Assembly (NCBI RefSeq): GCF_006345805.1
Contig: NC_042998.1
Coordinates: forward strand, 117,428,001 to 117,492,000
Source: Octopus sinensis
Lineage: Eukaryota
DNA length: 64,000 bases
Direction of reading: 5' to 3'
The notes under the pieces were generated by a model. The model made no database searches and was not told the DNA's origin. It saw only the letters and a list, made by a program, of their open reading frames with translations. Position numbers and translations under genes: made by a program. Positions 28,918-57,197 of this stretch are shown here, piece after piece; positions within the stretch are counted from its first letter, which is position 1; the number at the start of each line of letters is the position of its first letter.

Positions 28918-29253
28918 TACAAAATTTTGAGGATTGACCACTAAAAGTGAATAGCCTGTATTCTAGATATAGACATCAAAATCGCCATTATCCACGGAGA
29001 ATGTGATCTCAAGAAAAAATTCAGCAAAAAAACAAAGCGTAAAAATAAACAAGACAAATGAAAATATACGAAATAAAAAACCATTACCTATGTACTAATT
29101 AGTTTCACTTGTTAATAATTTACGTGTATGAATACATAAACATCTGCAAGATCATCAGCATAGTCTGTCGTTTACGAAACACAATTTCAAGAACAAGATA
29201 CAGTGCGCTCGACCGAAATCCACTTTTAGTAGTCAATCCTTTAAATTTTGTAT
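28918..29253 (-). mobile_element. Solo PLE pseudo-LTR/retrozyme with ~35-bp inverted ends
   Basis: tacaaaattttgaggattgaccactaaaagtg vs cacttttagtagtcaatcctttaaattttgta. Contains an HHR; the 3' end joins (TA)n. Confidence 0.75.
29088..29163 (-). ncRNA. Type-I hammerhead ribozyme
   Basis: ctatg CTGATGA t-cttg...caag-t GAAA CTAATTAG TA catag. Core intact, GUA cleavage site. Confidence 0.85.
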
Positions 29254-31104
29254 GTAAAAAAATTATTAATCGGATTTTTTAAATATGCTAGGCCACTGGT
29301 TTTAATTGATTAATATCAATTTCTACCCTTATTTAATTATACGTAAACCGTACCCGACCGTTAGACACTTATTTAATTATATATATATATATGTGTGCGT
29401 GTATATGTGTGTATATGTGCATATATACACACATACATATATATACATACATACATACATACATACATACATACATACATACATACATACATACAAACAT
29501 GCATACATATATACATATTTATAGTTATATTTGCCTTCAGAAATTTAGAACGTGAAATAACTTATAAACATTTTAACTGACCTGAAATTGTTACTATATA
29601 CACAAAATGTATGTTTTGCGTTTATAACGCATCTTAACTATTTGTATATTTTAAAATCTGAACTGATTAAGTGTCGTTGAAAACGCTTTCCTGATGCATA
29701 TTATACATCTCGAGATAGTGTTACATATTTTTTTTATGAAATATTCCATTTTGAAAGGGATACAGAACATTAACTGGAATATTTACATCAGTTTTGGAGC
29801 GCATATATTTTAAGCATTAGAATTATTTGGAATGTAATATTATTGGAAGAAATGCTAATTTAGAGATACCTTGTAATACGTTTTGGCATTGATTTTTCAA
29901 AATTATTAAAATAACCAAAAAATTGTTTATAATTTAATTGAGATAAAATAAAATTAATTTTGTTTGGTTTTTATCATATTAGAAAATATGAATGAGAGTT
30001 TTATGAGAAAAATACATTATACATTTTGGTATGTGTTTCACTAAATTTTCACAAAGCTAATTAAAGTTATGTCACCACAGCATAAGCAATAACTACTAAA
30101 ATGAAGAAAGAGAAAAAAACAGAAAATTGGCTACTAATGGATGCTGTTTCACGATAACTGAAAAATTTGGAAAAAATATTGATTGGAATTACTGCAACAA
30201 AATTTCTGTCTACTATATTTGAATAACGTAGATTAAATATTTGTTTTTAAAATTAAATAGAAAAAAGTGCATCAAAGAAGAAGATAGTTTCTTCTGCTTA
30301 ATCATAATCATCATATGGGAATCTCTTTTTATTATTTTTCATAAGCATGTGCTGTATTTTGAGTGAAAATCCGATCTAAAGTTTAATTTCAAGCACTTTT
30401 AAGTTTCTTTTCAGTGAGACGGAAAAAATTAAATTTGCTAAAAATATAAAGATGTCTTTATTTCCGATATAATTTTAGAGTTTGTTTCCATATTAGAGCT
30501 TTTTTCTCTTGTTTCTTGGCGTATATGTGCAACATATATTAATTGTACAGGTAAAAGTGCGTACGCACACACACGTGCCATACCAACCAGATAATAAAAA
30601 GGCGATCAATATGAAGAAATATTGAAGAACTTCCATGTATTTATATAAGAAATATAATTCTAGCCTCAGATTGTACTAGTAACCTGAGTTATTATCACTC
30701 AGGCCTCTCGAGGGAACAGCTGACAGGAATTTACAACTGTACTTGTTTCACCGTTAATAATTTGTTCTTTCTACATTGAGAGACTAACAGCTAGACCGAC
30801 AGAAGAAAGGCAGAAAAATAAAGTAGCATGAAACTACTCTCTGCGGTTGTAAATAAAAATACGAAGAGTGACAACAAGACACTTAGATACAATTTAAGTA
30901 AATTAGCTTCAATATGCATTAAAAAGTAAAAACAATGAAATAAACAATAACAAGGTCTTCGAAGATCAACAGTTGTTCAAACAAAAATACATAACAAAAA
31001 AAGCAGCAATAATAAATGTGTTACTTTCCAATTACAGCTCAACGCGAGCAACTTCAGAGGTCGATTACATCGCCTCCACTCCTCAGCTCCTACGTATGTT
31101 CTCG

Positions 31105-31228
31105 GAAGTGAAAACATGAAAGGGCAAAATTCGAGCTCGTGGAGATTTTGAACTTGAAACTTAAACACCGACGAAAAGCTTTCAATCATACTGGACAGTG
31201 TGCTAACGATTCTGCCAGTTCGGTGCCT
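31105..31228 (-). mobile_element. SINE 5' fragment
   Basis: Similar to the head of 13678-13905. Confidence 0.55.
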
Positions 31229-31231
31229 CAG

Positions 31232-31632
31232 TAATAATAATGATCATAATAATAATAATAATAATAAAAATAATAATAATAATAATAATAATAATAATAA
31301 TAATAATAATAATAATAATAATAATAATAATAATAATAACAATAATAATAATAATAATAGTAATAATAATAATAATAATAATAACAATAACAATAATAAT
31401 AATAATAATAATAATATCAATAATAATAATGATAATTATAATAATCGTAATAATAATATTAATAATGATAATAGTAATGATAATAATAATAATGATAATG
31501 ATAATAATAATAATAATATAATAATAATAATAATAATAATAATAATAATATTAATAATAATAATAATATAATAATAATAATAATAATAATAATAATAATA
31601 ATAATAATAATATAATAATAATAATAATAATA
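31232..31632. repeat. ~400-bp (AAT)n microsatellite
   Basis: Seen directly. Confidence 0.95.
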
Positions 31633-54271: not shown

Positions 54272-54356
54272 GCTACCTGCTGACGAGTCTGGCCTTGGCA
54301 GATGAATTCTATTCATTTGCTAAAAAGAAGAGACGAAACTGCAGTACAGGATTAGC
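54272..54356 (+). ncRNA. Canonical type-I hammerhead ribozyme
   Basis: gcta-cctg CTGACGA GTCT...AGAC GAAA CTGCAG TA cagg-at-tagc. Helix II is extended by the ttggcagatgaat/attcatttgctaa hairpin. Predicted cleavage after A54346. Confidence 0.9.
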
Positions 54357-54584
54357 TGAGATGGTAAACGTTTTTGATTTTCATTCCATTTCATGAATTA
54401 TGCCCTCTTTGCGTATCTAGCACTTGCTTCTGTATTTGGAAGCCTTTTAATGTATTTATATATGAATAACGTATAGTCTAATGACTAATCCGTCTTTTGT
54501 GCTAGGTCACTGGTAATAATAATTTATTTTTATTACCCTATTTACTATGTTTTATATATATATATATATATAGATATAGATATA

Positions 54585-55965
54585 GAAATTCGGGGTGAGT
54601 ACTTGATAATTGTAAGCACCTGTATATACCGTTTGGTGGTGTAGGTGGAGGAGTAAATTGATCAAAATAAAAACATGATGCCAAGGATTCAGCGGTACAT
54701 ATGTTTCGGGCCTTTATTAGACAGATTTATAATAATGCATAATGTATGTCTGTGGCCTTCTTCAGCCGCGCACAACAACTTCCACAAGGACATGTGTTAC
54801 ATCAAAAATTCTAGGTTGGGGATGCAAATCCTCTCATTCGCGTACGACATAATGCGGCAGCAGCATAGAATTGAAGCGTCCATCTCGTTCTTCTCTCAAT
54901 GTAGAATGAGGGAATTTAGATGTTGAAGTAATGTAAATAAATTAACAAATAAATACATATATAGACGTGAAGGGACCTGGTGATAAGAGTAAATAGGGGT
55001 AAAGATGGAGGGGCGAGAATTCAGGGCGAAGGATAAAAAAATATATAAAAAGTGTAAGTATAGAAAAATGTAAAAGTGTAGAGTATAAAGATATAAAGAG
55101 ATATAAGGAGATATAAGGGGGTATAAAGAATATAAAAAAAAATATAAATGAATATAAAGGTATCAAGTTATAAAGTAAAAATAGAAATAGAAATAAAAAT
55201 AAAAATAAAAGCAAAAAAATAAAAATAGGAATAAAAATAGGAATAAAAGTAATAAAAAAATATATAAGGATAAGGGATGTATAGTGGTTACGGACCAAAC
55301 ATGGTGGTCAGGAAAATGACAAAATCCAGTTGTAGAATCAACAGGGGCGTCTGGGGACTTAGTGTGTTGTAAATCAGATCTGTTGAGCGGTTAATCTAGT
55401 TCTTTGAGTTAATTGGTCATCTTGTACATACATACCAGCATGGATACATACACCCATATACACGCGCACATATACGCACGCATACACAGCTCCAAGCATA
55501 TAAGCATACATACGTACTCACGTGTAAACATATACAGAAACCCATATACACCCACACACATGCGCATGTATACATACATACAACAGAATATGCGTATATA
55601 TACCCGGACATTATCCGTGTACATATACATATATACATATATACACACACACGCACATACATATATACATATGCATATACACATATGCACACATATATGC
55701 ACGTGTATAATGTCGTAGATGCCAAAGAAATTACATACCCGGTCGATGAATACTTCACCAGCCAAAGATCCATCGTTGCATCCCAAAGAAGATTCGTACA
55801 ACGTGCTGTAAAGTGACCGGCATCACCCTGAAAGTTGAACCTGCGTTCTATGTCAACCTTCCAAGAGACAGGATATTGCAGCCATTCCAGTTCATATGCT
55901 AAACTACAGTGTGACTGAACGCGAGCTTGTGCATTTTCTCTTCATAGTGGTGACTATCTCTACGA
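54585..55965 (-). mobile_element. Probable degraded PLE 3' part ending in (TA)n
   Basis: HHR at 54692-54769, a low-complexity UTR, and a weak GIY-YIG-like remnant HMNWNGCNIL near 55870-55900. Confidence 0.45.
54692..54769 (-). ncRNA. Type-I hammerhead ribozyme
   Basis: gcgg CTGAAGA a-ggcc-acaga...tctgt...ggcc-c GAAA CATATG TA ccgc. Confidence 0.85.
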
Positions 55966-56282
55966 TGTAATACACACACACAAACACACATACATACATA
56001 CATACATACATATATATATATATATATATATATATATAATATATATATATATATGAAGATGTACTTGCATAGCGAGTGGCCGGAAGGTATTTATAAGTCA
56101 TTTAAGAAACACACAAAACCGTTAGATTCACTTCAACATTTAATTTAATTTGTCAAAATATTTTCGTCGGTTCATATATAATGCCGGTGTTCCCTGCACC
56201 CTGGGTTACACTTTATTGCCGGTGTATAATATATATATATATATATATATATATATATATATATATATTATATATATATATA

Positions 56283-57197
56283 TGGTAAAACGGTAAGATA
56301 ACAAAAGAAAGAAAGATACCTCAATATTATGTAAATAGAGAAAATTTATCTATACAATGATATGATTAGATAATTGTGTCGCTTTTCTTTTGTTCCAGTG
56401 CCTAAAGCTCAAAGTGTGGTTATTGAACCTGGCCTTGAAGTTACCCTCTGTAAGGCCCACATATTTCTTCGTCGAAACGGTGGTTACAGAGTTTTTAGTG
56501 GTTATAGAGTTTACGGTAGCTTCATATATGATGGTCTTGGACATGCAAGCTCCATTTAGCGGGCACAATTCTTTATTCCTGCATGAACAGCTGTAACTTC
56601 AAGGCAAGGTTCAATAACCACACTTTGAGCTTTAGGCACTGGAACAAAAGAAAAGCGACACAATTATCTAATCATATTTGGTCTTTAAGAGATAAAGGTG
56701 TCGATTATAACATACATTGGAAGATTTTGGCCAGATGCAATCCCTATACCAACGGCAGCGGAAGGTGCGGTCTATGCGACATGGAGAGATGACTTATCTG
56801 GAAAAGCAGCTTAGACCCTACTACATGTCTAAACACAAGGACAGAACTTTTCGGATCATGCCCATATGTGACTAAATTTCTGTTACATTTTTGGTCCCCT
56901 AAAGAAAACAGATAGAACATGCTTTCTATGTTATGTCCCAAGATGATTTTATATATTTTTATATATTTTTTATATATTTTTTATGTATTTTTATATAATT
57001 TTTATGGCGTAAAATGCGAGCGATGTATAAGTACGCAGGCAATCAGAGTTATAACAGAGTAATTTCCCTTTGTATAACGGTATATTTTCATAGCGTTTTC
57101 AAATAGCCAGATAACCGAAGAGATGTCGTGGATTCCACTGCGGCATCTGAAACTCAGAGTTTTATCTTGACTATCGAGTAATGTAACATATCATTGT
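56283..57197 (+). mobile_element. Nematis-type Penelope-like element, 5'-truncated with inversion, in (TA)n
   Basis: Inverted part CSCRNKELCPLNGACMSKTIIYEATV...KKYVGLTEGNFKARFNNH. Direct part NFKARFNNH...LSNHIWSLRDKG...WKILARC...CGLCDMER*LI...LNTRTELFGSCPY. Pseudo-LTR carries an HHR-like motif. Confidence 0.9.
57109..57167 (+). ncRNA. Non-canonical hammerhead-like motif
   Basis: agataa CCGAAGA GATGTCG...CGGCATC-t GAAA CTCAGAG TT ttatct. U4C change and one extra U before G12. Confidence 0.65.

Follow-up and report, generated by a model that had tools for sequence, protein, structure and literature searches.

In this study, we describe nine putative hammerhead ribozyme motifs with short, mostly self-complementary helix III segments in a 64,000-nt stretch of DNA (the window, that is, the whole stretch analysed). 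The best overall explanation is probably that they are dimer-acting hammerheads of the type carried by Penelope-like elements (PLEs), and that the differences between their families are a by-product. The palindromy of the motifs exceeds chance. The motifs look like the 3' ends of truncated PLE insertions; one repeat family is a clear PLE, and the others are likely to be PLEs too. On present evidence, they form an ordinary example of a published architecture. The double-hammerhead reading put forward in the preliminary description, itself published knowledge, draws support from self-complementary loop positions and from folding energies.

Hammerhead motifs and their helix III segments

Judged by sequence, the segments form helix III in hammerhead motifs of type I, and each motif is called here by the first position of its segment. 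The core CUGANGA/GAAA/UH was exact in four of the nine: the type I hammerhead 196 (192..233, minus strand; palindrome ACGT at 196-199; helix I of 3 bp), 29094 (29088..29163, minus strand; 10-nt palindrome ACTAATTAGT at 29094-29103; helix I of 5 bp; U-U at the base of helix II), 54338 (54276..54350, plus strand; palindrome ACTGCAGT at 54338-54345) and 54697 (54692..54769, minus strand; palindrome ACATATGT at 54697-54704). One change was found in 38379 (38371..38432, minus strand; C3U; 10-nt palindrome ACGTATGCGT at 38379-38388; helix I of 7 bp) and in 57152 (57109..57167, plus strand; U4C; 9-nt segment ACTCAGAGT at 57152-57160; helix I of 6 bp and helix II of 10 bp). The motif at a PLE 3' end, 52024 (51996..52033, plus strand; palindrome ACCGGT at 52024-52029), has the U3-A8 core variant TTGAAAA. 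Two or more changes mark the decayed hammerheads 17976 (17929..17988, plus strand; A14G and U16.1C; ACGCGC at 17976-17981; helix I of 6 bp) and 28191 (28126..28204, plus strand; palindrome ACACGTGT at 28191-28198; box GTGTGGA at 28126-28132; helix II formed by 28134-28143 and 28177-28186). Helix I measures 3-7 bp in eight of the nine motifs, being weak in 28191, and helix II 3-10 bp. Further motif candidates at 29691, 33285, 42729, 44934 and 53938 were dismissed as chance matches or relics, and exact-word matches at 36882 and 40722 were not hammerheads.

All nine segments named earlier were located in the window, three of them 6-47 nt away from where they had been placed; the numbers 190, 17929 and 38371 given for them lie at or near the ends of ribozyme motifs, not at palindromes. 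Self-complementarity, which had been claimed throughout, holds for eight segments (one with a G-U pair, one with a single unpaired centre) and fails for ACGCGC in the decayed 17976 copy with its two core changes. Likewise, the claim that each family has its own palindrome stood among the window's nine motifs but not uniformly among related copies, where the pairs 196/62110, 52024/46450 and 57152/16991 retain theirs and 17976/38379 differ. In the first pair, the decayed paralog (62118..62161, minus strand) has ATGT in place of ACGT. The paralog of 57152 (16955..17006, plus strand) has the CCGAAGA box and ACTCAGAGT in common with it but lacks 4 nt at GAA. At 16876-16945 there is also a partial copy in inverted orientation, without the palindrome. 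A decayed copy of the 52024 family motif (37857..37893, plus strand) has lost one base of its palindrome by deletion. The related units of 17976 (about 17625-18165, between (TA)n runs) and 38379 are 68% alike over about 400 nt, with segments of 6 and 10 nt, and changes between them in helix I are compensatory. The 3' end of the 38379 unit also recurs as an inverted copy at 38830-39010.

The frequency of such motifs by chance was assessed with a scan blind to helix III, allowing at most one core change, with 30 shuffled windows as control. In the window, seven rows at six loci were returned, and five of the six loci were palindromic, with segments of 8-10 nt; the shuffled windows gave 52 matches, 11 of them palindromic, and among segments of at least 8 nt only 1 of 31 was palindromic. 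The descriptor missed four of the nine named sites (196, 17976, 28191 and 52024), and another strict descriptor recovered one of the nine. Segments of at least 8 nt occur in six of the nine motifs. All six are self-complementary in their inner 3-4 nt, which a monomer hairpin would leave unpaired; for this, the rough joint chance is 1e-6 to 3e-5 at sites chosen by the earlier description. An Rfam scan of the window gave 92 matches at E<=1, none of them to a hammerhead family. A match to an Rfam model is not defining for catalysis, and these variants carry long helix II inserts. The Rfam matches were microsatellite-driven miRNA and the like.

Penelope-like element context

The 52024 motif is tied to a frame encoding a reverse transcriptase (RT) and a GIY-YIG endonuclease, and ends a Neptune/Nematis-type PLE. 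This frameshifted element (48925..52122, plus strand) comprises RT, linker and, at its C-terminus, GIY-YIG (50895-51260) found by Pfam, followed by a 3' untranslated part that ends at (TA)n; full-length relatives with RT and endonuclease exist. Its sequence carries the features of Neptune/Nematis-type EN+ PLEs, an assignment made from features and not from a tree of named references. One Cys of its linker is changed. An inverted, 5'-truncated copy (46387..48463, minus strand) retains an intact CX4CxxC linker and a second ACCGGT hammerhead near 46443-46480.

The 57152 motif, with (TA)n 36 nt downstream, follows an endonuclease C-terminal remnant with Hydra-clade-like motifs (56595-56890, plus strand), preceded by an inverted 5' piece (56360-56592; together 56360..56900). 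Inspection by eye identified CGLC, E, N and CPY (H replaced) in the remnant, and RT is absent; a Pfam search gave no match for it, and its top Atlas match was a GIY-YIG fragment cluster (0.92). The 57152 motif is therefore likely to be at a PLE 3' end. Upstream of the other seven named motifs, no PLE coding remnant was detected. A (TA)4+ run follows the motif within 34-207 nt at eight of the nine named sites (34 nt at 28191), compared with 19% of random places that have one within 250 nt. Same-strand motif copies flanking a frame were not found in the window, where copies are solo or inverted, and most window copies appear to be solo, 5'-truncated and partly decayed leftovers.

Related loci were surveyed against shuffles. 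In 76 related PLE loci there were 32 hammerhead matches, 26 of them palindromic, compared with 3.2 and 0.4 in the shuffles; segments of at least 8 nt made up 2 of the 26, compared with six of nine in the window. In four related loci, the frame lies between identical hammerhead repeats separated by 3.9-4.3 kb. In a protein tree, the PLE of the window falls in a clade (100/100) with four palindromes, all 6 nt long and each different in sequence, and palindrome length tracks the tree.

Dimer folding, drift and the alternatives

A self-complementary helix III would let two copies of the same element form a double hammerhead that cuts the RNA. In six of seven motifs, the predicted homodimer fold lay 7.9-16.4 kcal/mol below two monomers, the 196 homodimer being predicted unfavourable (+4.7), and all 42 heterodimer orders were predicted unfavourable; the models thus favour homodimers and not heterodimers. 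In an active element, the partner would be the copy in the other pseudo-LTR of one transcript, and would hence be of the same family by construction. It was also proposed that solo copies stay silent. For the 8-10-nt segments this is doubtful in the folding models, because such segments can form 2-3-bp monomer stems, as all six of them can. An alternative reading, which we consider unlikely, takes these segments as normal helices III of a monomer, each with 2-3 bp and a loop; single copies would then cut, dimerisation would be optional and solo copies would not be silent. For 54697, the monomer hammerhead is the single-strand fold of lowest energy, although it makes up 5% of the ensemble and helix III is open in the centroid. 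Type I hammerheads of invertebrates in which a tetraloop caps a 2-bp stem cleave well as monomers according to the parts consulted of PMC7229834 and PMC7761336. However, the monomer helix III hairpins of the 8-10-nt segments cost +0.4 to +2.9 kcal/mol, and the monomers of 54338, 29094 and 38379 are predicted to misfold, their core bases pairing with the 3' half of the palindrome (in models that leave out loop 1-loop 2 contacts). Moreover, a monomer needs no self-complementarity in its loop, yet it has been kept.

Given dimer-acting hammerheads, the differences between the palindromes of families seem to reflect drift passed down by inheritance rather than selection for a pairing code: palindromes would drift by paired changes along each lineage, with family differences as a by-product. 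A code would have palindromes lengthened and diverged for pairing with self only, so avoiding cross-cleavage or hijack amid crowded hammerhead families. The eight intact palindromes are indeed all different with no identical pair; the related 17976 and 38379 units differ by a 4-nt central insertion, and long segments are commoner here than in the related loci. Duplex energies, obtained by exhaustive enumeration, were -7.0 to -12.2 kcal/mol for homoduplexes of the 6-10-nt palindromes and -3.0 kcal/mol for the best heteroduplex, and in the 54338 and 54697 families neither palindrome varied among the contig variants listed (best 40 of 72). Against composition-matched random palindromes of the same lengths, however, 22-78% of nulls were equal or better on four measures and 78-88% of null sets likewise lacked an identical pair, in tests whose power is low with eight families. 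Under these nulls, a weak effect on the worst heterodimer (3% of uniform-base random sets as weak) was gone. Heterodimers would be barred by ordinary divergence, because the strands of helix I (or II) are exchanged as well in a double hammerhead, and helix I by itself bars 20 of 21 family pairs. For 29094/38379, helix I cross-pairs both ways, so the palindrome would be the discriminator for that pair. In another assembly, ACGU is common to six co-resident PLE families (60-67% protein identity), among which one pair (61% identity) can cross-pair helix I in both directions too. Palindrome length follows descent in the protein tree, and pairing in cis would require no code. The same-family restriction proposed earlier thus survives as a physically predicted preference and is unsupported as a selected code, which we consider very unlikely. 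The fuller proposal, that co-resident families evolved long incompatible palindromes that act as a self/non-self lock, while palindrome-core pairing switches the monomer off to give natural orthogonal dimer-gated ribozymes, is most improbable.

The suggestion that multimers are cut into mobilisable monomers found no support in the window, where no head-to-tail pair of the same family occurs. Nevertheless, seven of the nine motifs are without a detected upstream PLE coding remnant, and some may therefore be non-autonomous retrozyme-like units. According to such a reading, which seems rather improbable, several motifs belong to fixed-length units; the masters of these units would be tandem arrays at other places, from which cutting yields monomers and circles. 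The 17976 and 38379 units are homologous from the first bases past the upstream (TA)n, over about 550 nt; the 54697 family is very high-copy, its contig depth being roughly 14,000-25,000 times that of unique flank; and animal retrozymes have been reported, in the parts consulted of 10.64898/2026.07.22.740005, as PLE derivatives with many solo monomers. On the other side, head-to-tail repeats 150-450 nt long, each unit bearing a hammerhead, were not found in the window, and three units have inverted 5' pieces beside them, as is typical of PLE insertions. The 54338 unit runs from about 54092 to 54530, where it ends at (TA)n, and its contig depth is about 90 times that of unique flank. This unit, which the contig comparison covered in full, had three opposite-strand joints and no go-back joint among the joints listed, from contigs, which cannot prove absence. 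The 54338 and 54697 units lie tail-to-tail, meeting at one (TA)n. A presumed-RNA run that covered both families, and not unique flank, was not counted as expression. A 54697-family pattern with the palindrome left open gave 0 matches over metagenome contigs.

Relation to published hammerheads

Hammerhead variants with a small palindromic helix III were reportedly the subject of Lunse et al. 2017. A comparison of monomer, homodimer and heterodimer was not found in the literature searched, outside which that study lies. For such a comparison, the exact-core motifs with 8-10-nt palindromes, one of them from a very abundant family, are convenient substrates. A selected code, if true, would mean RNA-level self-recognition among selfish elements and ready orthogonal switches.

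Palindromic helix III, dimer cleavage, silent monomers and a 10-bp dimer stem are all published, in the parts consulted of PMC4209133, PMC3088659 (Fig. S8 legend) and PMC6765202. As in the PLE hammerheads (min-HHR) of Cervera & De la Pena 2014 (PMC4209133), so far as its consulted parts describe them, the window motifs show a type I layout, palindromy of 15.2-16.2 and loop 3, an extra base after A9, the U3-A8 core variant and, clearly for 52024 and probably for 57152, a place at the PLE 3' end. In both, a genome holds many sequence families, most copies are solo and truncated, and a dimer action is proposed. By contrast, six of the nine segments here are 8-10 nt, compared with a typical 4-6 nt there (the supplements may list longer ones), helix II frequently reaches 25-50 nt by extension, and several motifs have a 1x1 mismatch and not G10.1-C11.1. 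What PLE hammerheads do in vivo is treated as an open question in the parts consulted of PMC7761336 and PMC8557442.

In the repeat-type hammerheads that Perreault et al. 2011 (PMC3088659) report from Aedes aegypti and other animals, loop III is fully paired in the dimer, with a 10-bp stem, and a palindromic stem/loop III occurs there in several taxa, as it does here; organism and sequences are different, and the parts consulted make no claim of a family code. For the protein-coding copies, the consulted parts of Craig et al. 2021 (PMC8557442) give Neptune/Nematis PLEs the C-terminal GIY-YIG, CX2-5CxxC linker and CCHH pattern seen at 48925-52122, and Hydra-clade PLEs, which lack CCHH, CxxC and CxH around conserved E and N, of which the 56595 remnant shows the CxxC/E/N part by eye. 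EN+ PLEs share with the window (TA)n targets and inverted 5' pieces, whereas the window copies are frameshifted or truncated. Metazoan non-LTR retrozymes (Cervera & De la Pena 2020, PMC7229834, in part) are described with 170-400-nt head-to-tail repeats and loop 1-loop 2 contacts, in contrast to the window without a tandem array. Their hammerheads have, as here, a 1-2-bp helix III with a palindromic loop cap, and the axolotl type I hammerhead in that source has a U-U at the base of helix II, as does 29094.

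Hammerhead motifs and their helix III segments

All nine helix III segments named in the preliminary description were found in the window, at 196, 17976, 28191, 29094, 38379, 52024, 54338, 54697 and 57152 (each type I hammerhead motif is designated here by the start of its segment), although three of the numbers given there mark ribozyme ends or nearby positions. At each site GAA (GAG at 17976) precedes the segment, and H leads from it into helix I's 3' strand. The core is exact in four of the nine motifs, and 17976 and 28191 are decayed. The 52024 core is UUGAAAA, with the U3-A8 covariant that the available text of PMC4209133 describes for Schistosoma Penelope-like elements (PLEs). 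The 38379 core carries C3U. The 57152 core carries U4C, which is reported to reduce activity (PMC3088659, in part) and may be a family trait, because it is common to two separate insertions, 57152 and its paralog at 16955. U4C sites were located at 57115, 16955 and, inverted, 16928-16938. Across unrelated families, the base of helix II shows a recurrent 1x1 mismatch (U-U, A-A, A-C, C-A, U-C), not G10.1-C11.1, at 29158, 38425, 54765, 17935 and 28126, with a variant at 54287. The sequence at 53930-53985(+), in which a CTGATGA box leads into a truncated helix II and then a near-palindrome, is of single-copy depth and probably a relic.

Chance occurrence was assessed using a descriptor blind to helix III that allowed at most one core change, with thirty shuffled windows as control. 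In the window it returned 7 rows at 6 loci, with a fully self-complementary 8-10-nt segment at five of the six, and it missed four of the nine named sites. The controls gave 52 matches, 11 of them palindromic, and a single palindrome among 31 segments of at least 8 nt. No hammerhead was present among the 92 Rfam matches listed for the window.

Among window paralogs the segment is kept in three families: ACGT/ATGT in family 196, ACCGGT twice in family 52024 (from one insertion, besides a decayed copy with a deletion) and ACTCAGAGT twice in family 57152. The units 17625-18165(+) and 38190-38725(-), which carry 17976 and 38379, are 68% alike; their segments differ by a central 4-nt insertion, and helix I shows paired changes between them. 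Homology between the units begins immediately after an upstream (TA)n, a hint that they form a non-autonomous family whose 5' end is fixed. Contigs from four public runs were also aligned to 53880-54930 at 80% likeness. In two runs, depth, which does not equal copy number, was about 90x the unique flank for the 54338 family and 14,000-25,000x for the 54697 family (54595-54930(-), exact-core hammerhead), the latter being found in runs under three organism labels. The contig differences listed (40 of 72 rows) lie in the flanks, distal helix II, N7 or the helix II base, or keep or extend helix I, and none alters the 54338 or 54697 palindrome. This constancy lends weak support to conservation, because only 40 of the 72 rows were listed and the families look young.

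Predicted dimers and the question of a pairing code

The palindromes had been proposed as a possible dimerisation code that may confine cleavage to tandem or same-family transcripts and so leave solo copies silent. In all six 8-10-nt segments the inner 3-4 nt, unable to pair in a monomer hairpin, are self-complementary (joint chance roughly 1e-6 to 3e-5, for pre-selected sites). The computed cost of the monomer helix III hairpin was +0.4 to +2.9 kcal/mol, and homoduplex energies were -7.0 to -12.2 kcal/mol. Whole-structure estimates on tandem pairs, made from nearest-neighbour energies with an artificial linker and without tertiary contacts, gave the double hammerhead an advantage of 7.9-16.4 kcal/mol over two monomers for six of seven motifs, the exception being 196, and disfavoured all 42 heterodimer orders. 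The dimer reading is likely right, though already known from the literature. Predicted single-strand folds of 54338 (54270-54356), 29094 (29084-29168) and 38379 (38369-38435) tie up core bases with the palindrome's 3' half, which may be an off state. For 54697, by contrast, the monomer hammerhead has the lowest predicted energy (5% of the ensemble). Since monomer folds differ among motifs, the proposed silence of solo copies is plausible for some and doubtful for others.

The portions of PMC4209133 available describe type I hammerheads with a helix III of 1-2 bp and a palindromic loop acting as dimers, multimer versus monomer regulation, genomes with many families and solo truncated copies, and inactive monomers with weakly active dimers. 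PMC3088659 reports a dimer stem of 10 bp in Aedes and, for several taxa, a stem/loop III that is palindromic. The dimer model is restated in PMC6765202, PMC6466107, PMC7761336 and PMC7229834, and the same four sources, in the text available, describe invertebrate motifs with a 2-bp stem that cleave as monomers. In a partial text of 10.64898/2026.07.22.740005, animal retrozymes are traced back to PLE ends, and cleavage is recorded in one of nine dimers. The preliminary observation is right, and the window motifs add members to a known hammerhead class. Our literature search, whose reach did not extend to Lunse 2017, found no heterodimer test of double hammerheads, and such a test may be absent from the literature searched.

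The same-family pairing part of the proposal agrees with the predicted energies, but a code maintained by selection is very unlikely. By topology, a double hammerhead would also have to swap strands of helix I or of helix II, and the latter would require opening long hairpins. Because helix I can cross-pair by at least 4 bp in both directions in only one of 21 pairs (29094/38379), helix I would already bar the other 20, and for these the palindrome adds no further filtering in this model. Orthogonality was compared with random AC...GU palindromes of matched lengths: under uniform base composition 18% reached the observed orthogonality by the mean and 3% by the worst pair, whereas two composition-matched nulls reached 22-78% across four measures, in a test whose power is low with eight families. 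In assembly WLWD01, moreover, six families with 60-67% protein identity all have ACGU (at loci L069 and L072 on the assumption that the nearest downstream motif is the frame's own), and two of them (61%) cross-pair helix I in both directions; co-residence does not force palindromes to diverge. Same-family preference is predicted as a by-product of divergence.

Carrier elements and related loci

A frameshifted element with reverse transcriptase and endonuclease, 48925-52122(+), carries 52024, and its GIY-YIG frame (Pfam E 3.7e-5) lies about 770 nt upstream of that motif. A profile built from 27 long relatives matches the element along its length, and the CX4CxxC linker is kept in its inverted 5'-truncated copy (46387..48463(-)). 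Among five full-length relatives tested, two had both RVT_1 and GIY-YIG and three had one of them. The element fits the Neptune/Nematis-type PLEs among the EN+ clades defined in the accessible text of PMC8557442. Upstream of 57152 lie the C-terminal remnant of an endonuclease that shows Hydra-like motifs and its 5' piece in inverted orientation; a profile search with relatives of the window PLE detected no coding remnant for the other seven motifs. (TA)4+ occurs 34-207 nt downstream of eight motifs (within 250 nt at 19% of random places), the flank of the ninth running past the window end. The window holds no same-family, same-strand tandem pair.

Scanning part of the collection with full-length relatives confirmed 447 candidates, and the best 80 of these gave 76 loci. 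They contained 32 hammerhead matches, 26 palindromic (shuffles, 3.2 and 0.4), and three of the six non-palindromic matches were register slips of palindromic motifs. At four loci, identical hammerhead-bearing repeats 3.9-4.3 kb apart flank the frame, a layout that allows pairing in cis. A tree was built from the window's element and 15 loci whose frame is followed by a hammerhead at 78-561 nt, excluding the other 61. The window's element groups 100/100 with three elements (two long branches flagged), whose palindromes are also 6 nt with different sequences; loci L075 and L070 have segments of 8 and 9 nt. The length of the palindrome tracks lineage. At L057, L069 and L072, hammerheads of different PLE families, all with ACGU, are nested on the same strand, between a few hundred bases and a few kb from one another, and offer natural substrates for a heterodimer test.

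The repeat landscape of the window is animal-type, with 34% G+C, plentiful microsatellites and reverse-transcriptase remnants. Non-LTR retrotransposon remnants lie at 453-2185(-), 19620-21605(-) and 31567-34121(+), the last with RVT_1 and zf-RVT matches, beside (TAA)n/(CAA)n tracts, and the 196 hammerhead follows shortly after the end of one of them. A DUF4371 frame at 62382-62780(+) is likely a DNA-transposon remnant. A dispersed short repeat of about 230 nt is present in four copies, 72-88% alike, at 13676-13904, 34497-34666, 42951-43008 and 53639-53871.
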